Part shown: in pieces, positions 200 to 63,200 of the stretch
Layout of the letters: each line of letters starts with the position of its first letter
Numbering within the stretch: the first letter of the stretch is position 1
Source: a virus
Lineage: Duplodnaviria > Caudoviricetes
IMG/VR virus record: IMGVR_UViG_3300005805_000082
Span: 4,826-68,825 of that record
Direction: 5' to 3' (one strand)
Length of the DNA stretch: 64,000 nucleotides
The notes under the pieces: model-generated
What the model saw: only the letters and a program-made list of their open reading frames with translations
Told to the model about the DNA's origin: nothing
Databases searched by the model: none
Made by a program: the position numbers and the translations under genes

Positions 200-891
200 T
201 GGATATCAATGACGTACATCGGGTAATACTATTTGTTCTTGACAAGGAACAGAATGGTTATGTGTCTCACGAAGAGATTGATGACCAGCTTGACAGGGCT
301 CAGATGGTATTGTTCAATCAGTACTTCAACAACCCTAAACTGCCAGCTGCTGCACAGCCACAAGTATATTCAGAGAACCAAAGGATTCACGATAGTCTAG
401 CTCCATTCAAGGAGAAGTATACGTTCCTGACCACTGATACTCCATCTGGCGTACTCACCCTTCCTGCAGGATTCATGCATCTGTTGGGTCTGTACACGTC
501 TGTATACAATGCGACCTTATCCAGGAATGTATACTCAGGAGTTCAGGTACTGAACGAGGAGGAGCTGATTGAGCGCCTAGAGTCACAGGTAATCCCTGTG
601 AGTGTGGACGATCCGATCTGCATCATGAACAAGCAGAACAAGATTCAGCTGTTCCCTGAGACTGCACAGTCAGGTGCTGTGTATTATCTGAGAAAGCCTG
701 TGAAGCCTGTGTTTGGTTACACCTCCTCCGGCAGGGCAATTACTTACAGCTCGGGGGCATCTACTCAGCTAGAGTGGAAGGAGTCCGACATACAGAATAT
801 CATCGTGATCGCCTTATCATATTTGGGAATCAACCTTTCTAGTGCTGAAGTGATTCAGTACGCTGAAGGTAAAATAGCACAAGGACAGTAA
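199..891 (+). CDS. Putative tail ring/adaptor protein (crAss-like short tail)
   Basis: First of three coupled 200-250 aa ORFs upstream of the large muzzle-like gene; call is by position. Confidence 0.55.
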   Translation: MDINDVHRVILFVLDKEQNGYVSHEEIDDQLDRAQMVLFNQYFNNPKLPAAAQPQVYSENQRIHDSLAPFKEKYTFLTTDTPSGVLTLPAGFMHLLGLYTSVYNATLSRNVYSGVQVLNEEELIERLESQVIPVSVDDPICIMNKQNKIQLFPETAQSGAVYYLRKPVKPVFGYTSSGRAITYSSGASTQLEWKESDIQNIIVIALSYLGINLSSAEVIQYAEGKIAQGQ

Positions 892-1514
892 TGGCAACTA
901 CTAAATATAAAATTGCGGAACAGATACAGAGGCTGCTCAAGGGTGAGCCTACTATCTCTTCACGTCTGCACAGGAATGACATTATGTTGCTGATTGAACA
1001 GGTTGCCAATCAATTATTGAAGGCGGACTACTTCTCTGTCAATGTTCCTGAAGGAGATACCCTGCCATCTAACTGCATGGTATTTACCTACGACAATGTT
1101 CCTGTTACAACATATAAGACTACTAAGAGCAAGGCTACGCTTCCTGCTATACCAATCAGTTTGCCAAGGAATATGGGCGTACTCCATGTTTCTAAGACTG
1201 ATGCTATCGATGAACCTTTTGTTCCGATCCCTACGTCTATGTATGGGATTGTTAAACCGCAAGATCTTCTAGGAGATCTGTCGGGTTTGATCGGGTATGA
1301 GGTCGTGGGTAAAGATTTGATATTTACTGCAAACCTCCCAGGACTTAGTATCAACAGTGTGTACATCAGACTGGTTGGCGTTGACTTGTCTCAGCTGACT
1401 GATTATGACTTACTTCCTTTGTCGGCAGATATGGAGGCCCAGGTGGTGCAGCAAGTGTACGCCATCTTGGTGCAGACTCCTCCTGCTGACAGAGATCAAA
1501 ATATGAATGACTAA
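891..1514 (+). CDS. Putative tail ring/tubular protein
   Basis: Overlapping stop/start, size and position in tail module. Confidence 0.5.
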   Translation: MATTKYKIAEQIQRLLKGEPTISSRLHRNDIMLLIEQVANQLLKADYFSVNVPEGDTLPSNCMVFTYDNVPVTTYKTTKSKATLPAIPISLPRNMGVLHVSKTDAIDEPFVPIPTSMYGIVKPQDLLGDLSGLIGYEVVGKDLIFTANLPGLSINSVYIRLVGVDLSQLTDYDLLPLSADMEAQVVQQVYAILVQTPPADRDQNMND

Positions 1515-2272
1515 TGAAGCTCTATACTCTTGATAAGCTAGTAAGGGGTGCTCTCGCTTCGAGGGGCTATACCATGCATTGGTATCTTCAATTCCTTCAT
1601 TATGGCGTACAGGCGCTTCGTGAACTGAACTTTGATGTTCTGCAGAATGTCAAGAGTGTAAGACTGCCTGTCAATAGCTACGGGGCGGTAACACTGCCAT
1701 GTGACTTTGTTGACTACATCAGGGTGGGCAATGAGCTTGGACAATACATTCTGCCATGGGGTGAGCGTGATGATCTGAACAGGCTGAACAAATTTGATTC
1801 ACAAGGTAACAAGATTCCCTATGGAGACATCGAAGCTACTAACGGCCTACTTCCCAATAACTGGGAAGGTTTCTGGTATACTAATTATATCAACGACAAG
1901 GGAGAGCATCTTGGCAGAATCTTCAACAATAAACCTTCTTTTAGAAACTCTTTTGAAATCCTCAGAGAGCGTGGCGAAATGCAACTAGATACTAGTTACA
2001 CAGGAACTGAGATAGTTCTTGACTACATCACTGATGGCATATCTACTAGTGCAAGCAATGCGGTACATCCGTATGCTGCTGCAACTGTGGAGGCTTTTAT
2101 CATATATAAAATGAAAGAACACGGAAGGCAGTACGGACCAGGTGAAAGGCAAATGGCTCGGGAGGAATATTATAACCAGCTGAGAGTTCTTAGGGGTAGG
2201 ATGAATAGCATAGATGTTCAGGACATCCAAAGAAGCTTGGCTAGGAATTACGGACCTACTATCAGGAACTAA
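1514..2272 (+). CDS. Putative tail ring/tubular protein
   Basis: Overlapping stop/start, size and position in tail module. Confidence 0.5.
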   Translation: MKLYTLDKLVRGALASRGYTMHWYLQFLHYGVQALRELNFDVLQNVKSVRLPVNSYGAVTLPCDFVDYIRVGNELGQYILPWGERDDLNRLNKFDSQGNKIPYGDIEATNGLLPNNWEGFWYTNYINDKGEHLGRIFNNKPSFRNSFEILRERGEMQLDTSYTGTEIVLDYITDGISTSASNAVHPYAAATVEAFIIYKMKEHGRQYGPGERQMAREEYYNQLRVLRGRMNSIDVQDIQRSLARNYGPTIRN

Positions 2273-5200
2273 TGATTAGTAAAAAACTATTTACTGGCGG
2301 TATCAACTCTGACGATGCTGATATACTCGTTGACTCCAAGGAGTATCTGAATGCGTTGAATATCCGCTTTGCCACAACTGAAAGTGGTAAGGTAGGTCAG
2401 CTCTCTAATGTAGAGGGAAACACACTTAAGGCTACAACCCTAAATGGCTCGGGGGTTCAGGTTGCCTGGACATTGCCAGCAGGAACCAATACTACTATTG
2501 GCGCTATAGAGGATACACCCAACAAAAGAATCTTTTTCTTCAATAAGAACTCAAACGCAAGCGATGGCATCTATTGCTATGATGCGGACACTAATCTTGT
2601 GTATACCGTATTGCTAGCATCACAGGTTGAGGGTGGCCTTTCATTCAGCAGCAACATACACTCTGTTGCAATCATTGATAACTTATTGTACTGGACTGAT
2701 GGCATCAAGCCACAGCGCAGGATCAATGTAGAGGCTGGCATCAAGATGAACCATCCTTCCTACGCAACAGTAGTACCGCCATACGTTAGTACTGTACTTG
2801 CTCCCATTAAACAGTCTGTGATCAGTCTGATCAGGAATCAGCCATGGGCTCCGCCAACTATTCAGAAGTCAACCGATGCAACCTACCTGAATAACTTCAT
2901 CAAGAATGAGGCGTTTCAGTTTGCATATCGTTTTGTGTACAGGGACTATGAGATCAGTACGTTCTCGCCTCTGTCCGATCTTGCCAACTACAATACATCT
3001 ACAGATGGTTTCAACAGGATCCAAGTAACCATACCTACTACTCAAAAGATAGAGCAGGATGTTATTAGGATTGAGGTGGCGGTAAGGTTTGCGGTCGGGG
3101 GAAAGTATTCTGTCGTCAAGTCATTCTCAGATACCACAGCATTCTCATCCCACAATACGGGTACTGCATTAAACTTTTATTTTTATAATGACGCTGTAGG
3201 TATAGCTGTGGATGATGCAACAGCATTCAAGCAGTATGATTCAATACCGTTAAAATCTCAGACCCTTGAGATTGCCAAGAACAGATTGTTCCTTGGTAAT
3301 AACTATGATGGATACGAGACACCAAAGTCTACCTCTCTTTCTGTAGGTACTGCTAATGGTGGTGGTGCAACACTAACTGGTACATGGTGTAGTTTGGTAT
3401 ATGGAACTGCAGGAAGCCAGGCTACATTGTATCTTCTTGATGTTACGGGTATTGATCCTAACGCTGGATATTACGAGCCAAGCTCACCCCCGAACCCTAG
3501 TGCATTCCCAACAACTGTTGCCTGGAATACGCTGTCGTTTAGAGGCGCAGGCATCTCTAACGTATTATCATATTTGGGTATAACATATCAGGACATTATC
3601 AGCTTTACTGCTGGTCTTGGGTATGCTGATGTTACAGGATACTCTGGTGTTATCACAAGCATTGTAAACAAGAGGGCATTTAAGAGCGACTCTTCATACA
3701 GGCTTGGCGTAGTGTTCTTTGACGAGGCAGGCAGGAAGTGTGGTGTATCAACAAGGGAAGACCTGAAGGTAGTAACTGCTGACAGGGCTTATGCTACAGT
3801 TCAGTATACAACAGATGTTACCTGGGCATTGAGCAATAGCCCATCGACAGTGTTAAGTGAGATACCTGTTTGGGCTAAGTATTACTCAGTAGTAATGACC
3901 AAGTGTCTCAGGACATCGTTCTTCATGCAGCTCAAGGCGGATGGTATTAAGTGGGTTACTAAGAAAGATGACGGTACATATCAGGTAGAGAACTCATACA
4001 GTCAGAGTCACTACGGATTAGCGATAGACGTCAAGTCATTGTATGGTATCGGATATGGTTATTCATATCAAGAAGGAGATCTTGTGAAGCTTTATGGATC
4101 TAGCACACAAAAGACTACATTGTCTATAAGAGATACGTTTGGATCTTACATTGTGTGCGACAACTTCCATGCTACTGATGCCAACTTTCTATACGAAATT
4201 TATTCTCCATATACACAGAGTTTGAATGAGCCGTACTACGAAAGGTATCAGACTTATGTAGTAAATAATGCAGGCACAGATAACAGGGCATACTCTACAA
4301 TAACTGGATCGTTCCAGGGTGACATCACTATCATATCTCGTGGTACTTCTCCAACAGATTATCTAGTAGAGGCAATGTCTCCTGCAGATATCAACTGGAA
4401 GAACTGGAACACTGATGCTGGTAGGGCAAGTATTGTGCTAGACATCAAGCCTGCAGACAAGAAGACTAGCGTATACTTTAGTAACGTAATAGTCTTGGGT
4501 TCTCAGACCAATGGGTTAAGCACATTTGATGTACTTGATCAGACGCAGTTGCCTTATGAGCTATCTTCTATTCAGAAGCTGCAGCTTGTCAGCAAGGTGG
4601 AGTCTGAAGGTACAGTCATGCTAGCCATAGGTGAGCAGGAGACAGCATCTTTATACCTAGGCGAATCTCAGGTGTTTGACAATACAGGATCTTCCTTCCT
4701 TGCCAAGAGCTCGGGGGTAGTCGGTAATGTCAATGTTATGCGTGGTTCTTATGGCACTATCAATCCAGAGAGTGTTGTCAGATACATGGGAAATGTTTAT
4801 TGGTTTGACGCCAACAAAGGATCCGTAGTAAGCTACAGCGTAAACGGTCTGTTCCCGATCTCGGCTAACAAGATGCAGAAGTATTTCAGGAAGGTAGGAC
4901 AGGATGTGCTGAACAGGGGGCTGAAGTTCTATGGTGGTGTTGATCCTTACCATAATGAGATCCTCATGTATGCACCAAGAAAGTCTGCCATCCCTGAGGG
5001 GGCTAGACTGACTGACATGATCCTTGGTTCTAACACCTATAACTTTACAACGGTTGCAGCCGACTCAACTATCGTTGTTGTTGGCTTGGCAACCTATTCA
5101 TACAATGGCGCTCAGGTTGGTCCTAATCAGTCAACTGTTACAGGATCTACAGGTGCGGTTACATACTCATACTCCGGCACAGGGGCTACAGTCTACGGAC

Positions 5201-5880
5201 CTACCTCTGTAAGGCCTAGCCAGGTGGGCACATATCAGGTGGTTGCTTCTGTGGCCTCTGATGGTATTTATAATGCTGCAACTTCTGCACCATTTGCCTT
5301 CACCATTGCTACTGAGTTTGTGTTTGAGGCGGACTACATGTTGTTGACTTATCAGTTTACAGATGGTCTTGACCTTGATACTAGGACTAGGATAGTTACA
5401 CCTGACGTTGGACAGGATACACAGCCTGAATACGTGGGATGGGGTGTAGCAGGTTTCTGGCCGTCTATAGGTACGCCAATCTTAGATTGGGGTGGCGACA
5501 ATACAGGTACAGGTTTCGAGTCTGTACTAATCAACATTGCACAGCTTAAGGCATCCTATCCTGCAGCAACATCTTTGGTTGTTGACCTGAGGGCATTCTG
5601 GTATAACACTTTGGGTGTTCAGCCTGTGAATGTGGCAGCAACCCTTTGGAAGGGTGGAACGCCAATTGAGCAGGGACCAGGTGGAAGCCCTGCATACAGC
5701 TACACAAACCCCACTGCAACAGCAACCTTTAACATCAGTTCTGTAGGTAAGCAGATCTCCCTAGCACCAACAACCAATAAGGCTCAAAGCTCGGGTGAGA
5801 GGGTGGCCACACTGACATACAACCTGACTACTAATACAGGATCATTTAACTCTAACGACACCACAACTCCAAGCGTATGA
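2272..5880 (+). CDS. Tail muzzle/stabilisation protein, N-terminal part with Ig-like C-terminal addition
   Basis: N-terminus (GGINSDDADILV..EYLNALNIR..G.VG.LSNVEGN) and YWFDANKGSVV..GL.PIS..KM..YF segment typical of podovirus stabilisation proteins. Confidence 0.65.
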   Translation: MISKKLFTGGINSDDADILVDSKEYLNALNIRFATTESGKVGQLSNVEGNTLKATTLNGSGVQVAWTLPAGTNTTIGAIEDTPNKRIFFFNKNSNASDGIYCYDADTNLVYTVLLASQVEGGLSFSSNIHSVAIIDNLLYWTDGIKPQRRINVEAGIKMNHPSYATVVPPYVSTVLAPIKQSVISLIRNQPWAPPTIQKSTDATYLNNFIKNEAFQFAYRFVYRDYEISTFSPLSDLANYNTSTDGFNRIQVTIPTTQKIEQDVIRIEVAVRFAVGGKYSVVKSFSDTTAFSSHNTGTALNFYFYNDAVGIAVDDATAFKQYDSIPLKSQTLEIAKNRLFLGNNYDGYETPKSTSLSVGTANGGGATLTGTWCSLVYGTAGSQATLYLLDVTGIDPNAGYYEPSSPPNPSAFPTTVAWNTLSFRGAGISNVLSYLGITYQDIISFTAGLGYADVTGYSGVITSIVNKRAFKSDSSYRLGVVFFDEAGRKCGVSTREDLKVVTADRAYATVQYTTDVTWALSNSPSTVLSEIPVWAKYYSVVMTKCLRTSFFMQLKADGIKWVTKKDDGTYQVENSYSQSHYGLAIDVKSLYGIGYGYSYQEGDLVKLYGSSTQKTTLSIRDTFGSYIVCDNFHATDANFLYEIYSPYTQSLNEPYYERYQTYVVNNAGTDNRAYSTITGSFQGDITIISRGTSPTDYLVEAMSPADINWKNWNTDAGRASIVLDIKPADKKTSVYFSNVIVLGSQTNGLSTFDVLDQTQLPYELSSIQKLQLVSKVESEGTVMLAIGEQETASLYLGESQVFDNTGSSFLAKSSGVVGNVNVMRGSYGTINPESVVRYMGNVYWFDANKGSVVSYSVNGLFPISANKMQKYFRKVGQDVLNRGLKFYGGVDPYHNEILMYAPRKSAIPEGARLTDMILGSNTYNFTTVAADSTIVVVGLATYSYNGAQVGPNQSTVTGSTGAVTYSYSGTGATVYGPTSVRPSQVGTYQVVASVASDGIYNAATSAPFAFTIATEFVFEADYMLLTYQFTDGLDLDTRTRIVTPDVGQDTQPEYVGWGVAGFWPSIGTPILDWGGDNTGTGFESVLINIAQLKASYPAATSLVVDLRAFWYNTLGVQPVNVAATLWKGGTPIEQGPGGSPAYSYTNPTATATFNISSVGKQISLAPTTNKAQSSGERVATLTYNLTTNTGSFNSNDTTTPSV

Positions 5881-6062
5881 TAACAGAGAAGCAGGCTATG
5901 GGTTTGATATACTACAACCTTGGTAAGGTAGTAGTAGCCGAGAGGGATGGCAGTAGAAATATTTTCAGCTCGGGGGAGAGATTCATGGTAGCCATACTTA
6001 ATGGAGACGACAGTTCAGTGAGCCCTGTATTCCAAACCCTAGAAGAAGCACAAGCATGGTAG
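5877..6062 (+). CDS. Small hypothetical protein inside the muzzle locus
   Basis: 61-aa ORF coupled at both ends. Confidence 0.55.
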   Translation: MITEKQAMGLIYYNLGKVVVAERDGSRNIFSSGERFMVAILNGDDSSVSPVFQTLEEAQAW

Positions 6063-6817
6063 CAACAGTAAACATATCAGTCATTGAAGGCAGGGAGTAC
6101 CTGGTGACCGCCCCGTCAGGAGTAACGGTTCGTTACAATGGTGAGATCGTGACTAGTACTTTCATTGCAGTGTCTAGTGTCAACCAGGTATTACTGATCT
6201 CTCAGAATACTCTGTCTGGGCAGGTGACCATTACCGAAGTGGTTCGGGGGTACTACGATGCATATGACGGACAGGGGGGCGTATGGGCGTTTCAGCCAGG
6301 TGTAGATAAGTGGACAAGTCAGTACAGCTTCAGGCCTGAGTGGATGACCCTAGTAGGTAATAGGTTAGTAACCTTTCGTGACGGCAAGCCATACATCCAT
6401 GACAGTACCACACGCAATACATTCTATGGACAGACCTACGATTCAGTAGTGGCGTTCAATCACAATGAGGCAGGAAACATAACCAAGTCCTACCTGACAG
6501 TTTCTGTTGAGGGTTCTAAGCCAGACCTGGTTCATACAAGGACTGAGGTGCCGAATGTGCAGAGCAGTGATATAAGGCTTAATGAATTTGAAGTAAAGGA
6601 GGGCGTTAATTATGCGCCACTGTGGAGAGACAGACTTAGCCCTAATGTATCAGGAGATGCAGAGCAAAAGCTTAGGAAGGGGGACAGGATCCGTGGAGAG
6701 ATAGGTAAGTTCCAGGTGAACTATTCACTGCCTACTAATCCTAAGGATTTAAAACTTTTCAACATTGGATTCAATATAAGCAGGGGGCACAATACCATCC
6801 CTGAAAATGAAGGATAA
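6056..6817 (+). CDS. Tail muzzle/stabilisation protein, C-terminal part
   Basis: WAF...KWTSQYSF.PEW...RNTFYG..Y.S.V.F segment typical of the C-terminus of such proteins. Confidence 0.55.
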   Translation: MVATVNISVIEGREYLVTAPSGVTVRYNGEIVTSTFIAVSSVNQVLLISQNTLSGQVTITEVVRGYYDAYDGQGGVWAFQPGVDKWTSQYSFRPEWMTLVGNRLVTFRDGKPYIHDSTTRNTFYGQTYDSVVAFNHNEAGNITKSYLTVSVEGSKPDLVHTRTEVPNVQSSDIRLNEFEVKEGVNYAPLWRDRLSPNVSGDAEQKLRKGDRIRGEIGKFQVNYSLPTNPKDLKLFNIGFNISRGHNTIPENEG

Positions 6818-7544: not shown

Positions 7545-9356
7545 ATGTTTGAATTACCTAGGCCTATACAGACACAAGATAATACGGGAGCCCTTCTTAT
7601 GAAGGCTGCTGAAGAGGCTCGTCTGCAACAACAGCAATTGTCACAGCTTGTTCAGAAGAATGAGCAGATAAGGCAGGAAGCGTTCGGGGGTGCTCAGAAA
7701 CAATTGTTTGATATATCTAGTGCACAGAATGTTCCAGCAGAGGTACAGCGCCAAATCCTATCACAGGGTATGGATAAGCTTACTAAGCTATACAAAGATA
7801 GGCAGAACGTAAGAAGCGGGGACATTGCTATGCTTGCCATGGATACTCTCGTCAAGGCAAAGAATGACGCTACAGCATATCAGCAATATCTTGGTAATAG
7901 TGAAAAGTTTATAGCGGATCTGAAAGAAAAAGGGTTTGATGAATTTAATCTCAAGACAGCAATATCCAACAGCATATTTGATGAGAAGGTAGTACAGACC
8001 CCCAATGGTCAGCAGCAGATGGTTCGTGTGCCTAAGGACCCAACAAAGCTTGGGGATCCTCTTCAGTTTTTAGCGAAAGAGGTGGATGGTAACCCACAGA
8101 AGTATTTGAACCGTGAGAAAAGTAGCCAGGCATTGACAAAGCTTGTTGGTGACTATAAGCCAGGAGAGCTGACATTCTCTGACACAAAAGACCTGACAGG
8201 CAAGAAGACTGTTAAGGTTTCATATACCGAGAAGTCTTACCCATGGACTAGAACTCAGGAGCAAAATCAAAATGGCATTCCTGTTAAGATAAACGTACTT
8301 GACACAGAGCCGGAAGATATAGGCGGACAACAAGTTCAGATATTGTCTAAGAAGGCGTATGACTACTTCGCCAATAATCCAAACCCAACTATCGTCAAAG
8401 AAGTTGACGCAATGGGTAGGGATTATATTGATGATCACAACAGAAACCTAGGTATTAATCCACAGCAGATAACGGCTGATAATTTTGATAAGGTTGCTGC
8501 TCAGTTTCCTGGCGCCATCAATCCTTTCGACAATGGCAACAGGATGATCTTCAGCAGGCTTGCTTTGACAAAAACATTGCAACCAACATTTGGTAGGTTC
8601 GGGAACCCTAGTGTTACTATTGATGCTGCTAAGCCTAATGTGACGAATGTATACAACAATGATCTATACACACGAACTGGCAATCTGAGGCCCGAGGCTA
8701 GATTCCCTACATCATGGGCACAGATAGTTAATCAGGATGCTGACGTAATGAGGGTGTCTGATGAGGTGTCTTTCCAATTTGATGGTAAGACTCTTTCTGG
8801 GAAGAAGACTGGTGACAGAGCCCAGGGTCAAATCATAAAAGACAATGGTAAGAGAGCAACGGTGTTGTCTAGACCCGAGGAGCCTGGTGTTATCTACGTA
8901 GCAGAGCTTGAGGATGGAGAGATTACTGATAATGTAATAAAGCTTTCTGGTAAAGAGGCCGTTGACTATGGCGCCAAGATATCAAGTGCAAACGGGTCTG
9001 ACATTAAGACATTTGGCAAGCTGTATCCAAACGCAACAAAGACTGTTGTCCCTATGAGTGATGCAGATAAAGCTACTGTTGCAGATAACCTTTCGCTTCA
9101 GAGTGAGAGGGAAGAGGGTAAGGCTCTTGTTGGTGCTGCATCTCAGATTAGAGCATTGAAAGACGGTGAGACCAAGAATGTTAATAATGCTCGAGTGAGT
9201 TTGAATGGTAAGGAAGTTGTGATAAAATCAATCACTAGAAAGAATACAGGTTGGTTTACTGACAGTCCTGTTGAAGTAACATTAAAGGATGGCAGTAAGG
9301 TAACGTTTGCTAACAAAGAGGAGTTCATAAAAACCTTAATCGACTCAAACAAGTAA
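7545..9356 (+). CDS. Putative internal virion/ejection protein
   Basis: Q-rich N-terminus; between pilot-like gene and giant polyvalent protein. Confidence 0.5.
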   Translation: MFELPRPIQTQDNTGALLMKAAEEARLQQQQLSQLVQKNEQIRQEAFGGAQKQLFDISSAQNVPAEVQRQILSQGMDKLTKLYKDRQNVRSGDIAMLAMDTLVKAKNDATAYQQYLGNSEKFIADLKEKGFDEFNLKTAISNSIFDEKVVQTPNGQQQMVRVPKDPTKLGDPLQFLAKEVDGNPQKYLNREKSSQALTKLVGDYKPGELTFSDTKDLTGKKTVKVSYTEKSYPWTRTQEQNQNGIPVKINVLDTEPEDIGGQQVQILSKKAYDYFANNPNPTIVKEVDAMGRDYIDDHNRNLGINPQQITADNFDKVAAQFPGAINPFDNGNRMIFSRLALTKTLQPTFGRFGNPSVTIDAAKPNVTNVYNNDLYTRTGNLRPEARFPTSWAQIVNQDADVMRVSDEVSFQFDGKTLSGKKTGDRAQGQIIKDNGKRATVLSRPEEPGVIYVAELEDGEITDNVIKLSGKEAVDYGAKISSANGSDIKTFGKLYPNATKTVVPMSDADKATVADNLSLQSEREEGKALVGAASQIRALKDGETKNVNNARVSLNGKEVVIKSITRKNTGWFTDSPVEVTLKDGSKVTFANKEEFIKTLIDSNK

Positions 9357-9359: not shown

Positions 9360-12300
9360 ATGCCGGACCCTATACTGGATTTAATCTTAAGGCGTAAGTC
9401 TGCCAAGGGCAAACTAGATGCAAGCAGAAACTACCAGCCTATAACCATGGCATCCCCTGCCTTCAGTTACATTGGAACTGACGATGAGATGAATGCTAAG
9501 TTTGAGTTGGATGATATCAACGCTCAGATCTCTAGCCTGGGCCTTGATCCAGATTATGCAGAGGGTAAGATAGGAGATCTTCCTGACAATACTCCAGACT
9601 TCCTTGTTAGGGACGTATTGAATATAGAGAATCCTGTAGACCTTGCTAGAAAGAAGGCTGCCATCAAATGGCAAGCTCCTATTGCTAGGGCTATAGATAA
9701 TATTGCTGATCCCGAAGGGAAGCAAAAGGCAAAGGAAGAATTATCGTGGGTGTATAATGGCATTCGTGGTGATGAGAAAAGTAATTATGAGACTGCATAT
9801 AATGCAACCAAGGCAGCGGTTGATATAATCAGGAAGTACAATGGGTCAGGTGATATAGATGATATGCTGAAGAACCTTAGGGTTGATTCAGAGTACGGTC
9901 TTGCTAAAAGTATGCTTCGTGATCCAGCAGCACAAAAGCGTTGGGAGTCTTTGGGCCTAAATCCTGTACAGGGTATTGCCCTTGACTTCAAAGAATTATT
10001 TGACGATAACGGTAAAGAGTTTAAGAAACAAATAACTCAAAAGGTGGAGGCCCCTGATGCCCTCAGTGAGCAGAACATAAAGAAGGCAGAGCTTGAAAGA
10101 TACGGGTACAGCATCCTTGGCAATGAGATTGATTATCTCCTTGATAAGAATACTAGCGTAGTAAAGCAAGCTAACGAATACTACAGTCAGAATAAACCTA
10201 GGCTTGATGAGCTAGGCAAGCAGATTGGCAACGACTCAAAGCTTACCGATGAAATGAAGGTCAAGCTTTCTGGGTTTCAGAAAGAATACAATGATGCACT
10301 GATGGGAAGGGATGGAGAGGTGTTTACTAGTCCGTTTACATTTGATGGTCTCAAGGAAAAGGTAGAGTCAAAGACTGCATCTTCATATGAATTGAGGGAG
10401 TACAACAAGATGGCGGGAAAGTTGAATGCCATCGTAAATAAATACAAAGGCGATTTTGATACATACAACCAAACTGCTACAGAACAAAACGAATCAGTTC
10501 GGGAGTACAACAAGATTGTAAATAAAATCCAGGAGTCATACCAACAGTTGGGTGACTACAATAATCTTGGCGCTTGGGCTGAGTACTTAGCCAAGCAAAG
10601 GAATACACTTGGTGATCGCTACCCTGAGTACAAGCAACAAGAGCTTGAGGGATTGGTAAAGGATCTTGCAGGTGATAATGTAGGACTAGGTGAGAAGACA
10701 GCATTTAGATTGGCTCAGTCTATAGGTGGTGAAGCTGTTGATGGTGTGCGCAAGGTATGGAACAACCTGACTATATGGGATGGCGATAAGCTGCGTGAGA
10801 CCGAGATGGGTGATGCCTACAGGAGAAGAGTTGAAGACGTGATATTCAGCTACGAGACTGGTGACCAGATGCTGAAGGATGAACGTAGTGTTATACCTGT
10901 AGTTCCAAAGGAGGTACAGGAGCAGCTTAATGCTATCAAGAATAGCAACATGTCTGAGGAAGATAGGTACCAGGCAAACTATGACATTGTAAGTAAAGCT
11001 TTTGATGGAAAGAAAATACAGTATGTTGCTAATCCTAAGTACGGTAAGTACAATATAACTGCCGATTCGATACTCAATACTATATCAAGCGTTTCTTCAC
11101 AGTTCATTGGACAGATGGTCCAGTCTTATCTGACTGGGGGATTTGGTAATGTTTCTAAGTTGAGGAGGTTGACTACGCTATTTGGTACAACAGCAGCACA
11201 GACATTCTCAAGAGAGTATGACGCAGCTGTACAACGTGGTGACTCAAATCCATTTGAGCAGGCTGTAACCAAATCCTTTATTGAGGGCGTAAGTGAATTA
11301 CCATTTGATAATATTGAGTTTGTAAAGAAGCTGTCTCCTCAGTTTACTAGGTTGGCGGGAGATATGAGTCAGGCAGAATGGGCTGCACTCCGTTCCGGCA
11401 AGATGCCTGGAAACCTTGGAAGAGAGTTTGTTAATGCCGTAGAATCTGTGGCTAAAGAAGGCGTACTTGAAGAGGGGTTGGCTCAGGTCGGGGGTAATAT
11501 TGCAGACAAGTATCTGTTCGGTAAGGATAAGGATATCACAGAAGGACTTGACGTGGCCATGCTCGCAGGTACAATTGGTTTTGCGCCAATGTCACTGATC
11601 GGTCTACCCATGAAATACAGGTCCGCAAACATGGGTAACAAGCTCATGATGTACCAAGCTGGATACAAAGCAGACCAGGTGATCAATGCCATCAATCAGC
11701 AGTTGGCGGATGGTGGTATCACAGCAGAGGAAGCGAAGCAGAGGATTGAGTCAGTTAAGTTAATGAAGGAAGTGGTTGGCAAGATGAGTATGTACGATGC
11801 TAACGGCAAGCCACTTACAGATAATCAGAAGGCACAGTTTGCCTGGAACGAGTACACTAAACTCAAGGCAAAAGATATTGAAGGTCTACCTGAGCAGCAG
11901 AAGCAAGAGGTGGAGCAAGTAGTTAAAGAGGCGGATCAAAGTAGTAGTAACATATTAAACGGTACAGAAGATGCCACTTATGAAAGCCAAAGGCCCATGC
12001 AAGGAATGCCTGCAGAAGGCGATCTCCAACAACCTCAGGCAGTTGGACAAGGACAACAAGAAGCTAGCCAAGCCACGCAGTCGCAAACAAATATTGGCAA
12101 TAGCAATATCGGCAGCCAAGGGGGAGTAAGGGTATACACTGTTGACACAATCGATACCCTGCCTGCCGAGAACCTCGATGAGGTGCAGACCCAGGTGGTT
12201 ACTGATATCAAGTCCGCCACCAAAGCTGTAGCCAATCTTGCGATTGAGTCTACAGACAAGCCTGTATCTGTCCACATCCATGACACTCCTGAATCCTACG

Positions 12301-18665: not shown

Positions 18666-19098
18666 AGCAGGAAAAGAACTGATTAAATCCTATGAAGGCC
18701 TCAGGCTGAAGAGTTATAAGTGCTCAGCCGGAAAGGACACCATCGGATTTGGCGTAACCTTCTACGAAGATGGGCGCCCCGTTAAGCCTGGAGATACCAT
18801 TACTCTGGAAAGGGCTCACAAGTTATTCGACTTCATTATATCCAAGTTCACTAACAAGGTTAAGAGTTTAGTCAAGACAGAGATCAATGACAATCAGCTG
18901 TCGGCACTGGTAAGCTTTGCCTACAACTGTGGCATAGCTAACCTAATGAACTCAACCTTACTTAAGAAAGTAAACGCAAATCCAAACGACCCAACCATAG
19001 AAGACGAGTTCAAGAAGTGGACCAAGGCAGGAGGGAAGCAGCTCGGGGGGTTGGTAAAAAGAAGAGAAGCAGAAGCAAAACTATACTTTAATGTTTAA
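18649..19098 (+). CDS. GH24 phage lysozyme (endolysin)
   Basis: EGLRLKSYKCSAGKDTIGFG, ALVSFAYNCG and C-terminal GLVKRREAE motifs. Confidence 0.92.
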   Translation: MKMINEAGKELIKSYEGLRLKSYKCSAGKDTIGFGVTFYEDGRPVKPGDTITLERAHKLFDFIISKFTNKVKSLVKTEINDNQLSALVSFAYNCGIANLMNSTLLKKVNANPNDPTIEDEFKKWTKAGGKQLGGLVKRREAEAKLYFNV

Positions 19099-37281: not shown

Positions 37282-37288
37282 GGGGGTA

Positions 37289-43417: not shown

Positions 43418-43772
43418 TGGATGTGCAGTAGAGTCCCTATTTGATTTCATGGCGATGAGTAAGGGATTTGTTGTTTCCGCCCCCCGAACTGAGAAGGCTC
43501 AGTACGACAGAATACTTGACACTTCCAAAAGGCTGTACCGAGTACAGATAAAAGCCAGAAGAGGTAATGGCGCCAAATCAATCGTGGTACGAGTGAAGAG
43601 GTCGCAGAACCAAGTGTATACCATCAAGGACGCAGACATCATTGCTCTCTATATTGAAGACATTGACTCCTGGTACTTTATCCCTGTTGCCAAGTGTAAA
43701 CACATCTTCAGGCTGAACATTGACAAGGACAAGCTAGATACCTACAAAAACAACTGGACTATATTCAAGTGA
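43314..43772 (+). CDS. PD-(D/E)xK endonuclease (PDDEXK_5-like); true start likely near 43410
   Basis: G..VE..F...G..VS.P....YD.I.D...LYRVQIK. Confidence 0.75.
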   Translation: MKLRTKLSVRPLTSSLTRVKRKQPRRRQRRRVPISGCAVESLFDFMAMSKGFVVSAPRTEKAQYDRILDTSKRLYRVQIKARRGNGAKSIVVRVKRSQNQVYTIKDADIIALYIEDIDSWYFIPVAKCKHIFRLNIDKDKLDTYKNNWTIFK

Positions 43773-52680: not shown

Positions 52681-53853
52681 ATGCCGTCCATCAACAACAT
52701 AAGTTTTTCTGTACAGTTTGATCTTACAGGTGTTCCAACTTTGAGGATTACAGACACGAGTACACATGGCCTTTCAAGGGTCGCTTCATTTGATGTTACT
52801 CAGCCTGACCTGTACACCAGGGTTGGCAATATCCTGGCTCCTGACATGGGTGTTGGTGTGACTACATTTTCCCTTCCGCTTCGACTCGATAGTAATGGCA
52901 TGCCACAGTGTGGTACATATACAATCGTAATGACGGTAAGGTCTGCAGGATATGATGACACTACGTTTACAAGAACATGGGTATCTCAATATAAACCCGT
53001 CAATCTAAACATTGGCGAAGATTTTGATGTATTCACACCTAACTTGAGCGTAAGGGATAACACGTCCTACTCTGTATCAAACTATAACTATGGCTCTCTT
53101 ACAAGGGCTTGGAGTATTACAAGCACTCCAACAGGAACTCTGACTGGTTCGGGGGTAACTAGAAGTTTCCTGTATAATGGCAGCTACTATGCAGCCGTCT
53201 ACTCTATATCCCTTACCTCAAGTCTTTTGTACACCCATCAGGTTTACTCATGGTTTACGGTAAATGAGACGCTAAGCAAATCATACAGTGCATGTATCCA
53301 AACTCCTCCAGACTACGAGGGGTTTGTTAATCTTATAAGTGAACTGAAGGCGCAGCTAGATGCAGCGATCAATACTTGCCAAAAGTATGACAACCTGCAG
53401 GCTGACTTTGAGTTTGCGCAAACCTTATTCAATCATATCATAGATAAGATAAAGGTTGGGGATACTGCCAACATATATACAGACCTGAAGGATCTAATGA
53501 AGGTCCTTTCTAACAACCAGGTTCCGGCTTGTAATCCTGACAACCTACCTATACCTGCATTTAACTTAGGTATACTTGATGGTGTTGCATGGGGCACGAT
53601 TACTGGAGACATCCAAAATCAGACCGACCTGTGGAATATTATCACAGACTTGTATGTTAGAGACCATTATATACATACTCAGGCAGTGGCCAATACTACG
53701 TGGACAGTCACGCATAATATGGGGAAAAACCCAAGCGTGTCGATCATCGATAGTTCGGGGGATGAGGTGCTCGGAGAAGTAAATCACATTTCCAATAATC
53801 AATTAATAATAACCTTCAGCGCAGCCTTCAGTGGCGTAGCCTATTTAAACTAA
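52681..53853 (+). CDS. Structural (collar/fibre-base) protein
   Basis: WGTITGDIQNQTDL and HTQ...TW.VTHNMGK.PSV fibre-associated motifs. Confidence 0.6.
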   Translation: MPSINNISFSVQFDLTGVPTLRITDTSTHGLSRVASFDVTQPDLYTRVGNILAPDMGVGVTTFSLPLRLDSNGMPQCGTYTIVMTVRSAGYDDTTFTRTWVSQYKPVNLNIGEDFDVFTPNLSVRDNTSYSVSNYNYGSLTRAWSITSTPTGTLTGSGVTRSFLYNGSYYAAVYSISLTSSLLYTHQVYSWFTVNETLSKSYSACIQTPPDYEGFVNLISELKAQLDAAINTCQKYDNLQADFEFAQTLFNHIIDKIKVGDTANIYTDLKDLMKVLSNNQVPACNPDNLPIPAFNLGILDGVAWGTITGDIQNQTDLWNIITDLYVRDHYIHTQAVANTTWTVTHNMGKNPSVSIIDSSGDEVLGEVNHISNNQLIITFSAAFSGVAYLN

Positions 53854-54985: not shown

Positions 54986-57334
54986 ATGAGGTTTCTCTCT
55001 GATATACTAGCCAAAGCTGGGTTAATTGTTGATGGTACAACCACATTAAATGGTGCTGGTGCTGCAACTGTTGACACGGATAAGTTTGTTGTTCTCGATG
55101 GTGCTGTTGTAAAATACAGGACAGGCGCACAAGTGTTGTCTGATATTGGTGCAGTATCTACTAACATTTACACAAGTAATGGAACCTTAACAGGCAATCG
55201 TACACTAACCTTGTCTACCAACTACTTAGATATAGTAGGTACAACTACAACTCGATTTTCCTCAGCTGGTAATCTTATAATTGGAGGTACTGTAGATAGC
55301 GGATGGAAGCTAGATGTAAATGGCAACATTCGTGCTACTTTGCCTGGACAATCTGGTGAACTTGGTGGAGTTTTTTATGTTGCAACTGGAGCCACTGTAA
55401 GACCATACGCTGTCGATATGGTTGTTGGTAATTATTTGATACGAGCCAACGATAGTGATTTGCACCTTGGTGCGTATTATGGCACATGGCTTAGTGGTCC
55501 ACAGATGTATATTCAAGGCGTACCTACTTTAATTTGGGGTACAACGACTGGGCCTGCGAATGTGTCTAGATTGAATATGGGTGTAAGTAATACTAATGAA
55601 TACTTACAAGGTGGAAGCTACCCTAATACAACAGATAATTACTTCTATATTTCAACTGAAATTGTTTCTTCTTCATTTGACAGAAGAAGGTTTCAGATAA
55701 GTGCAAAGGATATAAGGTTCCTTACTGGAGCAAGTGAAAGTCTTGCCATGACTATTGGTAATACTGGCACTGTTACCGTTAATAACCTTTCCGGCACAGG
55801 AACAAGAATGGTTGTTGCTGATGCTACAGGCTTGTTATCTACCCAGGCAATACCGACAGGCGGTGGTGGTGGATCAACCTCTAGGTCAACTCAGACATTT
55901 ACTGCCACATCCAACCAAACAGCGTTTACTGTATCGGGCACTCTAACTGCAGGATACTTTGATGTGTATCTTAATGGCGTAAGATTAAACTCTAGCTCTT
56001 ATTCAAATACATCCTCGGTACTTACACTTGTTGATGGTGCTGCTACAGGGGACATCATTGACGTTATTAACTACGATACACTTAGTATAACCACCCTACT
56101 TCCTGATCAGACAGGTAATGCAGGTAAGTATCTAACTACTGACGGTACAAATTTATCCTGGGCTGCAGTTTCAGGATCTGGAACTGTTACGTCTGTATCT
56201 GTAGTATCCGCTAATGGATTTGCAGGTACGGTTGCAACGGCAACAACAACCCCAGCAATCACCATCAGCACAACTATCACAGGTCTGCTGAAGGGAAATG
56301 GAACTGCAATATCTGCAGCTGTAGCTGGAACAGATTATCAATCTCCTATATCACTTACAACAACAGGCAGTTCGGGAGCAGCGACATTCAGCTCAAACTC
56401 CCTGAACATACCTAACTATACTTTAGCAGGTTTGGGCGGTCAGCCACTTGCTACGAACCTTACATCTCTAGCTGGTTTGTCTTATGTGTCTGCTTCATTT
56501 GTAAAGATGACAGCAGCTGGCACATTCTCTCTTGATACAAATACTTATTACCTGTCATCCAATCCTAACGGATATACTTCTAACACAGGAACAGTAACAA
56601 CCGTTTCTGTAGTATCTGCTAATGGGTTTGCAGGATCTGTAGCAACCGCATCGACAACTCCTGCAATAACTATATCAACTAGTGTAACAGGTATATTGAA
56701 AGGAAACGGTACAGCTATAAGTGCAGCTGTTGCAGGAACTGATTACTTGGTATCCAACCAGACAATCACCTTATCTGGAGATGTATCAGGATCTGGATCT
56801 ACAGCAATCACCACAGCCATTGGCGCAAACAAAGTTACAAACGCCATGCTTGCTCAGGTGTCTACTGCGACATTCAAGGGTAGGACAACAGCAGGTACAG
56901 GTAATGTTGAGGATCTTACAGGTACTCAGGCTACTGCCTTGCTTGATCTTTTTTCTTCTAGTGTTAAAGGTCTTGTACCTGCAAGTGGTGGAGGAACTAC
57001 AAACTTTTTAAGGGCAGACGGCACATGGGCTGCACCTCCTGCAGGTGGCGGTGCATATTCAGTTATAACTGTAACAACAACCCATTCAGAAACTGCAACT
57101 TCAGGAACTAAGATAATTAAAGCGGATACATCAGGTGGAGCATTTACAATTAACCTACCTACTGCTGTGGGTAATACAGCAACAATCATCATCAAAAAAA
57201 TAGCTGGTTCGGGGGCATTGACAGTTGATGGTAACGGAACACAGACAATAGATGGTGGAACAACAGCAATTTTAAATAAAGTATATGAGTCTATAACACT
57301 CATATCAGATAACTCAAACTGGCAAATAGTATAA
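54986..57334 (+). CDS. Tail fibre protein
   Basis: T/G/S-rich with internal 50-aa duplication. Confidence 0.7.
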   Translation: MRFLSDILAKAGLIVDGTTTLNGAGAATVDTDKFVVLDGAVVKYRTGAQVLSDIGAVSTNIYTSNGTLTGNRTLTLSTNYLDIVGTTTTRFSSAGNLIIGGTVDSGWKLDVNGNIRATLPGQSGELGGVFYVATGATVRPYAVDMVVGNYLIRANDSDLHLGAYYGTWLSGPQMYIQGVPTLIWGTTTGPANVSRLNMGVSNTNEYLQGGSYPNTTDNYFYISTEIVSSSFDRRRFQISAKDIRFLTGASESLAMTIGNTGTVTVNNLSGTGTRMVVADATGLLSTQAIPTGGGGGSTSRSTQTFTATSNQTAFTVSGTLTAGYFDVYLNGVRLNSSSYSNTSSVLTLVDGAATGDIIDVINYDTLSITTLLPDQTGNAGKYLTTDGTNLSWAAVSGSGTVTSVSVVSANGFAGTVATATTTPAITISTTITGLLKGNGTAISAAVAGTDYQSPISLTTTGSSGAATFSSNSLNIPNYTLAGLGGQPLATNLTSLAGLSYVSASFVKMTAAGTFSLDTNTYYLSSNPNGYTSNTGTVTTVSVVSANGFAGSVATASTTPAITISTSVTGILKGNGTAISAAVAGTDYLVSNQTITLSGDVSGSGSTAITTAIGANKVTNAMLAQVSTATFKGRTTAGTGNVEDLTGTQATALLDLFSSSVKGLVPASGGGTTNFLRADGTWAAPPAGGGAYSVITVTTTHSETATSGTKIIKADTSGGAFTINLPTAVGNTATIIIKKIAGSGALTVDGNGTQTIDGGTTAILNKVYESITLISDNSNWQIV

Positions 57335-59340: not shown

Positions 59341-60218
59341 GATACCTATTTATTATACTACTGTTTGTTTCCTGTGTTAAGGAGAAACCTATGGAAAAGA
59401 AGCCAGAGGTATGCAACCTTGGCGGTCTTGCTGTTCACTCCACCCGTGAAGAGTTCGAGATGGCCCGTTCGGGGGGAACTAGAACAAAGGATGGTGACAG
59501 AGACGGTATAGCTGATAATATAGACAACTGTCCAAGGAAAGCTAACCCTGATCAGAAGGATAGTGATGGTGATGGGATAGGTGACGTGTGTGACAGCACT
59601 CCATTCTCTGTGCCGAATACAACCTATGGTGTTATCCTGCTAGACTTTGATGGCCATGTGCTTCCTGCATATAATGTGTGGAATAGCTCGGGGGCTTTGT
59701 ATACAGCTCAGCCTAGCGGATTATATCCAGCAGAGGTTCAACAGATCACTGACCTAGTAGCTTCTGACTACAGTAAGTTTAAAGTAATTGTAACAACAGA
59801 CGAGAATATATACAAGTCAGCAAACCAGTACAAAAGAATCAGGGTGATAGTAACTACATCTAGTGAATTGTATCCGGGTGCTGGAGGTGTTGCGTATGTA
59901 GGCAGTATGTTTTGGGGTGGGGAGGCGACATGCCTAGTATTCTCAGACAGGCTTTCTTATAACCCACTAAGAGTTAGGCTGGCAGCAACTCACGAGTCAG
60001 GTCATACTGTAGGTCTGTATCATCAGTCATTGTGGGATGCCAACTGTGTTCAGATATATACTTACAGACCGTGTGATGCTGCAACCAATACAGGCCCTTT
60101 CATGGGTTCTGTTGGTACTAGCTGTGTGGCGCAGTGGTGGGTTGGTCCCACAAACAGAAGCTGTACTGACATTCAGGATGATGTGGCGATAATAACTAAA
60201 AACGTAGGATTAAAATAA
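59337..60218 (+). CDS. Lipoprotein with thrombospondin type-3 repeat and metzincin-type protease
   Basis: [13 protein letters not shown] signal; [32 protein letters not shown]; [11 protein letters not shown] at 59991. Confidence 0.8.
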
Positions 60219-60224
60219 TTATCT

Positions 60225-63200
60225 ATGGCTTTCAATAGACAAAGGAGAACAAGCGACATAGCCAATGTAGTTGTAGCTGATGCTAGTAGGAACGTAACGC
60301 TTCCTGCTGATCTGACTGTCACTGCCTTGGTTAATGCAGGTTTGCTCAAGGGTAATGCTGCAGGTAAGCTTGTTGCTGCTGTAGCAGGCACAGACTTCCA
60401 ATCTCCTATAAGCCTAACTACTACAGGCACATCAGGAGCGGCAACCTTTGTTGGGGGAACTCTAAATATCCCACAATATCAAGCTCAAGGAAGCTATATA
60501 ACTTCTTTGACTGGCGAGGCAACCGCTTCTGGTCCGGGAGCTGCTTCTGTAACTCTGTCTAATGCAGCTGTTATTGGCAAGGTGCTTACAGGTCTTAACA
60601 TAACAGGAGGAAGTGTTGTTGCTACAGATACAATACTGACAGCCTTTGGAAAGCTTCAGAATCAGGTAAACGGTTTAACTGGTGGTGTAACTTATCAGGG
60701 TACATGGAACGCATCAACCAACACTCCAACTTTAACTAGCTCTACAGGAACAAAGGGATACTACTATGTAGTTTCTGTTGCCGGATCTACAAACTTAAAT
60801 GGCGTAACCGACTGGAAGCTTGGGGACTGGGCAATATATAACGGAACGTCATGGGAGAAGGTAGACAATACGGATGCTGTTGTTTCGGTAAATGGCTTTA
60901 CTGGCGCTGTAAGTTTAACCAGCGATAACGTATCAGAAGGTTCCACAAACTTATACTTTACTAATACAAGAGCTAGGTCCGCTATCTCATTGACAACTAC
61001 AGGCAGCTCGGGGGCATCAACTTACAACAGTTCTACAGGCGCACTGAATATTCCAAACTATACACTTGCAGGATTAGGCGGTCAGGCACAGCTGAACGGA
61101 ACAGGCTTTGTGAGGATGTCTGGTACTACGGTTTCATATATAAGTGGAACCAGTGCTCAGTTTGTAAAAGCTGACGGATCGTTGGACTCTACTGCCTACA
61201 CAGCCAACACGGGTACTGTAACTTCTGTGGCTTTGGCTACGGGTACAAGTGGAACTGATGTTAACGTATCAGGATCTCCGATTACTACTTCTGGTACTAT
61301 TACTCTTAATATCCCTGACGCATCGTCAACTGCAAGGGGTTTGATTACTACGGGAACACAGACTATCGTAGGTCAGAAGACCTTATACTCCGGCACAACC
61401 GTATTTGATTCCAATCAGGTTTCTACTTTAATTGAGGGAAGGGCAGGAGGTACATTGTATGGAGGGATCTTCTTTGGGTCTTTTATTCAGTTCAATGCAT
61501 ATACTTCTGCTTCAAGTGGATTTCTTTGGAAGAACGGAGCCAGTACAAACATAATGACTCTTGACCAGTCTGGAAACCTAGGGGTTAACACACTGGCAGG
61601 TACTGGGACTAGGATGGTGGTTGCCAGCAGTACGGGGGTATTAAGCACCCAAGCTATAACTACTGGTACAGTAACAAGTGTAGCTTTGGCCACAGGTTCT
61701 ACAGGTACTGACATCAACGTATCAGGATCTCCCATCACATCTTCAGGAACTATCACCTTAAACATACCTACAGCTTCAGGGTCAGCTCGGGGGCTTTTGA
61801 GTTCTGCTGACTGGACTACATTCAACAATAAACAAGCTGCCTTAACCAACCCAGTTACAGGTACAGGTGCATCGGGTCAGGTAGCCTACTTCAATGGTAC
61901 TACTACAGTTACAGGAAACAATAACTTCTTCTGGGATATAACAAATAGTAGGCTTGGTATAGGTATAAATACTCCTGTTCAAAAACTTCATGTATACGGA
62001 ACAACTAATTCAAGAGTTGGTGTAGAGGGAACAACAAACTATTCAGCGTTTCAAAATATAAATACTTCTGGTAATATCTACTGGGGAATTGATAATAGTA
62101 CGGGGTCTGATTTTACAGGAGTTGCTTATGCAAGGTTTATTTATAGTGAGGGAGCATATCCATTAATAACATATGTTAATGGTGCTGAACGTATGCGTAT
62201 TGCATCTACAGGTGCAGCTACTTTTAGCTCTACAATAGCTTCAGGAGGTGATATTACGGCTCCATATGATACTACTGATAAGCTAATCGGTATCAGATTC
62301 TCTGCTACATATTACAATGGATTTGTTTTAAATGGAACTACTCGTAGCACTGGTATTGTGTCAAGAAGTGGAGATGCAAGTGATTACATTTGGTTTGGCA
62401 CGAATGCTGCTACTGAGCGTATGCGCATTACTAATGGCGGAAACCTATTGGTGGGAACTACAAATGATCAGGGTTATAAATTAGATGTCAATGGGAAAAG
62501 TGCATTCAGAGGTGCTATGGCACTTACATCAGGAGCAACAGGTTTACCTGCAACTGCTGGTGGTGATTTGATTATTGGTGGTGGTTACTTATCTCCAACA
62601 TCAGGTAGGATTTATTTTGGTGATGGAACAGGATGGAAGCTTTATATATCAAAAAGACTTAGCTCAGTTGATACTGATCTTTTCACCTTCCAAGATAATG
62701 GTAATTTTGGTATAGGCACGAATAGTCCTGCAACACAGCTTCACTTATCTGGTTCTTCAGTACTGCGGACTACAAACACAGCAAACACTTCTGGCTTTGA
62801 CTTCGGTCTTATTGGTGGTGTATCAGATGCGACAGGATATATATACAATAGGGCAAATGCAGCATTAGTATTTGGTGTTAATAATGCCGAGCAAATGCGT
62901 ATTACTACTACTGGTCTTGGTATTGGTACTGCAAGTCCATCTTATAAACTTGATGTTGTCAGTGGAAATGGAGATGGTATTGTTTATAGAACTTCAACAA
63001 GGTCTATAGGCATAGGTCAAATATCCAGCGAACCATCATTGTTCTGGGGAAGCGGAACCCCACTAACATTCTTTAGCGGTTCTGAGTTAATGCGTATCAC
63101 ATCTGACGGTAATGTTGGTATAGGTACTACAAGCCCAAATTACCCATTACAAGTAAGAAGAGCAGGAGGTGCTGGTTCTTTAGGAATAAGTATAGATGGT

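Follow-up and report, generated by a model that had tools for sequence, protein, structure and literature searches.

The stretch of DNA analyzed here, referred to as the window, comprises 64,000 nucleotides (bases 4826-68825) of the 68,825-bp IMG/VR record IMGVR_UViG_3300005805_000082 (genome G000), and the element in question is the heptanucleotide TCGGGGG, which recurs on both of its strands. The genome is podophage-like and of the Bacteroidota phage kind, with a TerL 29-31% identical to those of Flavobacterium Elemovirus and Cellulophaga phages, and the phage sequence occurs in sequencing runs of metagenomes from lakes and freshwater, with no RNA run listed among them. The late block, which is long and directed rightward, continues round the ends of the record, and 75% of the genes lie on the + strand. 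The leftward early block encodes a T7 gp4-like primase-helicase, a YqaJ exonuclease, a Rad52-family annealing protein and RusA, together with a deoxynucleoside monophosphate kinase, an integrase, a ParB-like protein and a C5-methyltransferase. The record is probably near-complete, since the related genome G001 has terminal repeats at 67.5 kb and another relative, G312, is rated 100% by CheckV at 68 kb; the CheckV completeness values are 62% for G000 itself and 64% for G001. No DNA-level match to any phage record was found, a TerL search of a genome collection yielded no prophage relative, and a literature search for the word returned nothing relevant.

Distribution of the Word

Within the window, TCGGGGG is present in 35 copies, 27 on the + strand and 8 on the - strand, and the whole record holds 38 (30 + and 8 -), a density of 1 per 1.8 kb. 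The 27 + and 7 - positions listed by a first-pass annotation are exact; one - copy, located at 46063-46069 and antisense in TerL, had been overlooked. The sense copies on the + strand are found in every codon phase. Phase 0 is occupied at 751-757 (read as S-G), 2449-2455, 4711-4717, 5970-5976, 20210-20216, 53149-53155, 53755-53761, 57209-57215, 59469-59475, 59688-59694 and 61008-61014. Phase 1 is used at 3095-3101 (V-G-G), 7684-7690, 11488-11494 (within a gene for a 3101-residue protein), 14200-14206, 19043-19049 and 47543-47549 (in the portal gene), and phase 2 at 6244-6250 (R-G), 12920-12926 and 61787-61793. One - copy, at 30679-30685, is likewise sense, as it lies in the leftward YqaJ gene.

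Antisense copies occur in genes of both directions. On the - strand they are located at 3487-3493 (gene 2272-5880), 20735-20741 (M15 peptidase gene), 21361-21367, 42279-42285 (DUF4846 gene) and 43481-43487 (PD-(D/E)XK nuclease gene), in addition to the TerL copy; on the + strand, they are found at 23403-23409 (a leftward open reading frame), 30293-30299 (YqaJ gene) and 30967-30973 (Rad52-like gene). Two further copies are intergenic, at 32495-32501 (-) and at 39038-39044 (+), the latter directly past the end of gene 39048-39371. The remaining three + copies, at 22475-22481, 35981-35987 and 37280-37286, are associated with hairpins and are described below.

The word is longer than its heptanucleotide core: alignment of 211 sites from six genomes gives the consensus c-A-G-Y-TCGGGGG. 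The G two positions 5' of the T, already pointed out in the first-pass annotation, is present in 34 of the 35 window copies, the exception being 42279 (-). The core is strict. Replacing the T by any other base leaves 0-2 copies each compared with 38 exact ones, and each of the five Gs is strict as well, single replacements of the last one giving 2-7 copies.

Enrichment and Independence from Coding

The abundance of the word is not explained by base composition, codon usage or assembly. Dinucleotide shuffles of the window predict 2.87 copies on both strands together, against 35 observed. For the record, Markov models of orders 1-3 predict 1.3-3.2 copies on the + strand, where 30 are observed, and 0.56-1.08 on the - strand, where 8 are observed (about 9-fold). 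The order-5 model predicts 24 + copies against 30 and is uninformative, because a model of that order absorbs the word itself. Overall, the heptanucleotide is enriched about 10-20-fold; the enrichment announced earlier is therefore real and persists under the Markov correction that had been proposed, here at orders 1-3, at a level below the 30-fold first estimated. The single copy then expected from base composition becomes 2-4 with Markov models and shuffles, and 2.7 with synonymous shuffles.

Synonymous-codon shuffling, which preserves each protein and the codon usage of each gene, predicts 1.1 sense copies against 24 observed and 1.55 antisense copies against 11 observed. The word is composed of the rare codons TCG, GGG and CGG, and its sense sites are distributed over the codon phases as 14/7/3, so that all three occur, as previously noted. 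An origin in codon usage or in a protein motif is thus ruled out by the synonymous shuffles and by the use of all frames and both strands. An assembly artifact is ruled out as well, as the word is present in 13 related assemblies (other IMG/VR records) and in contigs of other runs. The sites are also reproduced, wherever they are covered, by contigs of two other origins, one a second run of the same study and the other an unrelated study of 2024, and no indels occur at the G-runs; the contig of the 2024 study confirms the copies at 53149-53155 and 53755-53761. The suspicion that the G-runs might be sequencing errors can accordingly be set aside.

Relatives and Site Turnover

The word is a property of a clade of IMG/VR genomes with TerL 74-92% identical to that of G000 and GC contents of 37-51%. 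TCGGGGG is the top heptanucleotide in most 20-kb loci of the clade, and all 13 relatives with a TerL at least 74% identical carry 12-44 copies per whole record, with 0-6 copies of the reversed control. Individual sites are not conserved to the same degree. An orthologous position frequently has the word in part of the genomes only; in the others, synonymous or near-synonymous alternatives stand instead, and the base at -1 varies where the word is retained. The copy at 4711-4717 is present in G001 and G005 and lost in G002-G004; the one at 30293-30299 is present in G002, G003 and G005 and lost in G001 and G004; that at 47543-47549 is found in this genome only, the relatives reading V-A-G. The comparison of orthologous genes suggested earlier shows the word kept in some relatives and replaced in others. 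As orthologous sites appear and disappear and the overall number is maintained, selection acts on copy number, not on individual sites.

A wider comparison of 30 genomes resolves three groups. In the first, which is the clade just described (TerL at least 74% identical), the primase-helicase is 60-70% identical, TCGGGGG occurs 12-44 times and a different word, GGGTGACC, at most 3 times; the primase-helicase is seen in 11 of the 13 relatives, the other two being fragments that do not cover the gene. The second group, a sister clade (TerL 54-56%, primase-helicase 43-45%), has at most 4 copies of TCGGGGG and instead carries GGGTGACC in 13, 12, 12, 5, 12 and 7 copies in G313, G314, G315, G317, G319 and G327, respectively, with a reversed control of 0. 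The third group (G321-G325; TerL 47-50%) has no gp4-like primase-helicase, 0-2 copies of TCGGGGG and no GGGTGACC. Word type therefore varies together with primase-helicase type across the three groups.

The sister word is strongly polar. In the order given above, its strand ratios are 12:1, 9:3, 11:1, 5:0, 11:1 and 6:1; it lies on the late-gene sense strand and keeps to the same strand even in the oppositely transcribed early genes. Some further properties of this word may be recorded. Its extended form is GGTTGGGGTGACC (loci L200-L203 and L221-L232), and about 0.3 copies per genome are expected (four genomes modeled) against the 5-13 present. Three copies fall within conserved W-G-D-H repeats of a tail fiber, and the others are scattered, including antisense positions in early genes. 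A more distant GenBank relative, L118 (MW202828.1), carries about 12 copies of the 16-bp palindrome GTGTCGTTAACGACAC, a different kind of repeat from the asymmetric TCGGGGG word. In G318, the one enriched word turned out to be a collagen-like repeat inside a single gene and was discarded.

Strand Preference

The strand bias was evaluated on six pooled genomes with order-2 Markov expectations. In rightward genes, 103 sense copies are observed against 3.8 expected (27-fold) and 29 antisense copies against 2.25 (13-fold); the corresponding values for leftward genes are 18 against 1.4 (13-fold) in sense and 29 against 2.7 (11-fold) in antisense. The raw 4:1 ratio derives mostly from gene orientation and from the fact that Gly-rich sense readings exceed Pro-rich antisense ones. 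To correct for this, all peptide positions at which synonymous codons alone could spell the word were counted, together with the share that do. In rightward genes, the + motif uses 103 of 648 such opportunities (15.9%) and the - motif 29 of 261 (11.1%), whereas in leftward genes the + motif uses 29 of 85 (34%) and the - motif 18 of 121 (14.9%). The Fisher p-values for + versus -, 0.08 and 0.002, respectively, assume independence between copies in related genomes, an assumption that is only partly valid.

Overall, 18.0% of the + opportunities are used compared with 12.3% of the - ones. A genuine residual preference of about 1.5-fold for the late-gene sense strand thus remains, whatever the direction of the gene. 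The polarity described in the first-pass annotation is therefore real, including the correctly counted 7 versus 2 in favor of the + strand in the leftward block, and weaker than 4:1. Intergenic copies are also biased (27 + versus 5 -), an excess due to a family of early-region elements from which many of them come. Sense and antisense opportunities, on the other hand, are used equally (15.7% versus 16.8%, p=0.66), and transcription or RNA therefore plays no part. Taken with the synonymous shuffles and the use of all frames, this confirms the earlier view that the word is a DNA-level signal, neither codon usage nor an RNA signal. Selection holds it at a Chi-like density, overriding codon usage at 11-34% of the possible positions.

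Early-Region Hairpins

About 10% of the copies (22 of 211 in the six genomes) lie at the 5' edge of tRNA-like hairpins located between the cistrons of the early operon. The layout of these elements consists of a stop codon, a few bases, C5, GAACUGN, a variable core (often a T-arm), NCAGUUC and CUCAUCAAAAC..AUG. In the window, the + copy at 37280-37286 supplies, on the - strand, the C5 leader and the first closing-stem bases of such a minihelix (37239-37286, -; stem GAACUGC/GCAGUUC, T-arm), which belongs to this family with a constant stem embedding the motif. Relatives of the minihelix are located, in approximate coordinates, at L030:13290-13350, L033:16400-16460 and L035:2060-2120. The elements are tRNA-like or resemble three-way junctions. 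Their cores vary, with a T-arm in some and two small hairpins in others, and the closing stem GAACUGN/NCAGUUC is constant; a stem that stays constant despite differing cores is expected if the DNA word constrains it. The early-operon elements look like RNA-processing punctuation.

Two other window copies lie in hairpins of a different type. The copy at 22475-22481 is the 3' arm of a terminator-like hairpin directly after gene 22146-22460, in which inverted G5/C5 cores (22463-22490, +; AGCCCCC-agttc-GGGGGCT) precede a T-rich run. Read on the - strand, the copy at 35981-35987 provides the 5' arm of a hairpin with a U-run behind it, 25 nt upstream of tRNA-Trp, which is the sole Rfam match at the gathering threshold. 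On the early strand of relatives, some further copies are also the 5' arm of hairpins followed by a U-run.

These elements raise the question of whether the word could act in RNA, with early transcripts that carry CCCCCGAACUG pairing to late mRNAs that carry CAGYUCGGGGG, or as a processing signal. In RNA, the complement of the word would supply the C5 leader and the stem strand GAACUG of the hairpins that 22 of the 211 copies border. The other 90% of the copies have no hairpin, the "wrong" orientations are 13-fold enriched as well, and sense and antisense are used equally, which makes such a role very improbable. Dependence of the word on a hairpin was rejected on the same basis, as just 22 of 211 copies have an upstream complementary arm. 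A promoter reading of the early-region copies was also rejected, because the A/T-rich bases upstream are the preceding stop codons and no conserved -35 element is present.

Likely Host and a Possible Host Word

The sole host clue is the DUF4846 gene (41663-42331, +; Pfam E=2e-72), carried otherwise only by the closest relative, G001. Its closest bacterial homologues, 62-67% identical, belong to metagenome-assembled genomes of freshwater Chitinophagaceae and Ferruginibacter, and the phage protein does not have the signal-peptide extension of the bacterial ones. The gene appears to be host-derived, and its similarity points to Chitinophagaceae as the likely host family.

The first-pass annotation had considered a host Chi-like site or a KOPS-like cue (FtsK orienting polar sequences). 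As a Chi-like site, the word would stop or reprogram the AddAB/RecBCD of the host when this enzyme enters packaging or rolling-circle DNA at the free end. Several features recall the coliphage LLS (PMC12315714): the density of 1 per 1.8 kb is close to its 1 per 1.86 kb, the copies are divided between the strands as 30:8 here and as 20:3 there, and the word lies on the late-gene sense strand, like active Chi in that phage. The turnover of sites and their independence from codon usage would also suit this explanation. A Chi or KOPS word, however, must be frequent in the host, and in the hosts deduced here it is not. Five Chitinophagaceae genomes with a DUF4846 homologue contain TCGGGGG once per 30-86 kb, approximately as often as the reversed control. 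A further 151 genomes of the family give ratios to the control that are mostly below 1 and reach 2.7 at most, so that the word is usually at or below its control; in most of these 5 + 151 genomes, it occurs once per 25-75 kb.

None of 301 Bacteroidota genomes approaches the phage density: GNTCGGGGG was not found at that level in any of them, the densest genome having 1 per 6 kb at a ratio of 1.8, and the best ratio being about 4 at 1 per 15 kb. The sister word behaves in the same way, as GGGTGACC at phage or Chi-like density was not found in 201 Bacteroidota genomes. With regard to the proposed check of skew around the origin and terminus, one host-family chromosome listed in full shows interleaved strands and ordinary skew only. 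In addition, this phage has its own YqaJ exonuclease, Rad52-like protein and RusA, whereas Chi-rich phages are without recombination modules, and one word is common to relatives of 37-51% GC that probably infect different hosts. A Chi-like signal for the host enzyme is consequently rather improbable, and the KOPS alternative, for which the same host enrichment would be needed, is likewise unsupported.

Candidate Readers

The reader of the word must be clade-specific, non-host, DNA-acting and indifferent to transcription, with some strand sense, and a phage strand-tracking enzyme fits best. cAGyTCGGGGG is a selected DNA signal private to one clade of uncultured freshwater Bacteroidota podophages, and it is read, with a probability of about 0.7, by an enzyme encoded by the phage rather than by its host. 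Among the options of the first-pass annotation, a target site for some phage protein is retained as the best reading; the particular proteins proposed there are not. Of the six other clade genomes compared, all of which keep the motif, none has the methyltransferase, one has the ParB-like protein and three have the protein of gene 22146-22460. The C5-cytosine methyltransferase gene (23776-24798, -), in which Pfam matches just the N-terminal half (profile positions 1-169 of 324), has no homologue in those relatives and was therefore acquired recently, with no connection to the word. A ParB-parS system also differs in its sites, which are few and palindromic compared with about 38 copies of an asymmetric word.

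The identity of the reader, and the effect that reading would have, are inferred. The tentative first choice is the T7 gp4-like primase-helicase (27109-28875, -), for which the word may be the template recognition site, although this is less likely than not. The protein matches PHROG 239 (E=6e-97) and combines an N-terminal Cys4 zinc ribbon (CxxC...CxxC) with Toprim and DnaB_C (DnaB-like) domains. No other class of enzymes is known to read short words on single-stranded DNA by means of a zinc finger; the recognition sites of T7 gp4 are GGGTC, TGGTC and GTGTC, and its specificity is set beside the second Cys pair. In the present phages, each clade has a conserved T7-type Cys4 ribbon of its own, and the differences from clade to clade lie beside that second pair. 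The parallel between word type and primase-helicase type over the three groups supports this choice. By analogy, the T-C of the word may correspond to that of T7's G-T-C, the pyrimidine at -1 would template a purine as the second primer base, and the sister word GGGTGACC contains GGGT, which is the copied part of the T7 site GGGTC.

In the proposed mechanism, the helicase would travel 5'->3' on the sense strand of the late genes; forks moving in the same direction as late transcription would have this strand as their lagging-strand template. The Cys4 zinc finger would recognize the word, and priming would begin opposite the T. CGGGGG, as a lengthened "cryptic" 3' portion, would not be copied, and the resulting primer would be pppA-R-C-U-G. 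The copies on the minus strand would serve forks running the opposite way. A site of this length would confine priming to phage DNA, and the genome would then need a copy every few kb.

Several observations weigh against this assignment, or against a phage-encoded strand-tracking reader in general. Although T-C is invariant, the 8-10 bases specified are far beyond any known gp4-type site; the DnaG/gp4-type primases known to date recognize trinucleotides, for which enrichment is unnecessary. A primase would leave most of the core TCGGGGG uncopied, although no other part of the word is as strict. The + sites are not spaced more regularly than expected by chance (largest gap 8.5 kb, about 9 kb expected), and the strand preference is just about 1.5-fold once corrected. 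G316 and G318 have a 38%-identical primase-helicase and no dispersed word. Word type and enzyme type are fully confounded with phylogeny, so that any clade-linked gene fits, and about a dozen further genes are clade-specific: among them are the Rad52-like protein (30770-31510, -), a 130-residue protein (29404-29793), the DnaA-domain-IV-like and winged-helix-like proteins and the PD-(D/E)XK nuclease. The host, finally, is itself deduced from gene similarity.

Some of these genes encode alternative candidate readers. The word could be a duplex binding site for a clade-specific DNA-binding protein with a role in regulation, titration or genome organization. One candidate is the small protein resembling DnaA domain IV (34194-34544, -), in which ..SRRxEIV.. 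and ..HHSTVIHH.. are DnaA-like motifs (Pfam Bac_DnaA_C, E=6.5e-4); the other is a winged helix-turn-helix-like protein (39048-39371, -), which lies under the Pfam threshold. Proteins with the DnaA domain IV fold bind asymmetric 9-bp boxes as monomers, strong homologues of the DnaA-like protein are present in 11 of the 13 other motif-rich genomes (the remaining two are fragments), and the corrected use of the word is nearly independent of orientation. The Pfam match of the DnaA-like protein is, however, also under the threshold, and a PDB sequence search gave no match. The complete genome G313 has the sister word and no DnaA-like homologue, and G316 and G318 have homologues and no word. A strict 7-bp core would be unusual for a helix-turn-helix operator, and the residual strand preference, together with the 11:1 polarity in the sister clade, is ill-suited to a duplex reader. 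Binding of this kind is therefore considered improbable.

A nuclease site of the phage itself is a still weaker candidate. The word could be a private, Chi-like pause for the YqaJ (lambda-Exo-type) exonuclease (29790-30773, -) that limits resection, or it could mark T5-type programmed nicks by the PD-(D/E)XK nuclease (43314-43772, +), a clade-specific relative of the homing endonuclease I-Ssp6803I (PDB 2OST, E=1.8e-7). Both nucleases are conserved over the clade, and a strict asymmetric core is typical of enzyme recognition sites; moreover, lambda exonuclease pauses at a specific G-rich word, and T5 is nicked at fixed one-strand words. Homing endonucleases of the I-Ssp6803I family, on the contrary, cut single long sites, and we know of no report of selection-driven enrichment of nick sites. 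As a separate observation, the position of the PD-(D/E)XK gene, directly upstream of the terminase genes, is fixed in the six relatives compared.

Returning to a strand-tracking enzyme of the phage as the favored reader, a broader generalization can be formulated, which is doubtful at present: phage lineages may hold private "dialects" of a long, strand-read address word (TCGGGGG here, GGGTGACC in the sister clade, none in the third), each required by the lineage's own replication or recombination motor, so that the genome would label itself as the sole DNA that the motor accepts. Chi, KOPS and primase sites are examples of the short polar words by which DNA motors tell direction and ownership, and in every well-understood phage case of which we are aware the word is borrowed from the host. 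If the dialects exist, they would be a phage-encoded counterpart of Chi or primase sites for distinguishing self from non-self. If the reader is encoded by the phage, a virus would here keep an enzyme to its own DNA in a novel manner, and uncultured phages could be grouped, and their replication modules predicted, from the presence of the word in the sequence alone.

Comparison with Known Systems

The closest parallel in abundance is given by the Chi-saturated phages, namely, coliphage LLS, Pseudomonas phage MD8 and P1, which carry the Chi of their hosts and no recombination genes (PMC12315714). In both cases, a short, strict, G-rich and asymmetric word occurs about once per 1.8 kb, mostly on the late-gene sense strand, independently of codon usage and with sites that come and go (PMC12315714). 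The word of those phages is abundant in the host, whereas here it is at background in the likely hosts; the present phage also has its own exonuclease and annealing module, and a sister clade with a different word.

KOPS and the SpoIIIE recognition sequences (SRS), the guides of FtsK and SpoIIIE, are likewise G-rich polar 8-mers read by a translocase; they differ in being defined on host chromosomes and skewed toward dif, while host enrichment was not found here. DNA uptake sequences and uptake signal sequences (DUS/USS) resemble the present word in being 9-12-mers inside genes, in all frames and on both strands, with some inverted pairs acting as terminators and with different dialects in related lineages. 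They are read by the bacterial competence machinery, whereas the word described here belongs to a phage genome, with no uptake step. The nick sites of T5-like and some Pseudomonas phages are also asymmetric words set by the phage and located mostly on one strand; selection for their number is unreported, and the present word is known from assembled contigs.

The recognition sites of T7 gp4 are comparable in terms of the enzyme. The primase-helicases are homologous and share the Cys4 zinc finger, the word lies on the putative lagging-strand template and contains T-C, and the word of the sister clade, GGGTGACC, contains GGGT. The difference lies in length and abundance: T7 specifies three bases in sites that are not enriched, whereas the word of these phages specifies 8-10 bases and is enriched 10-27-fold on both strands.

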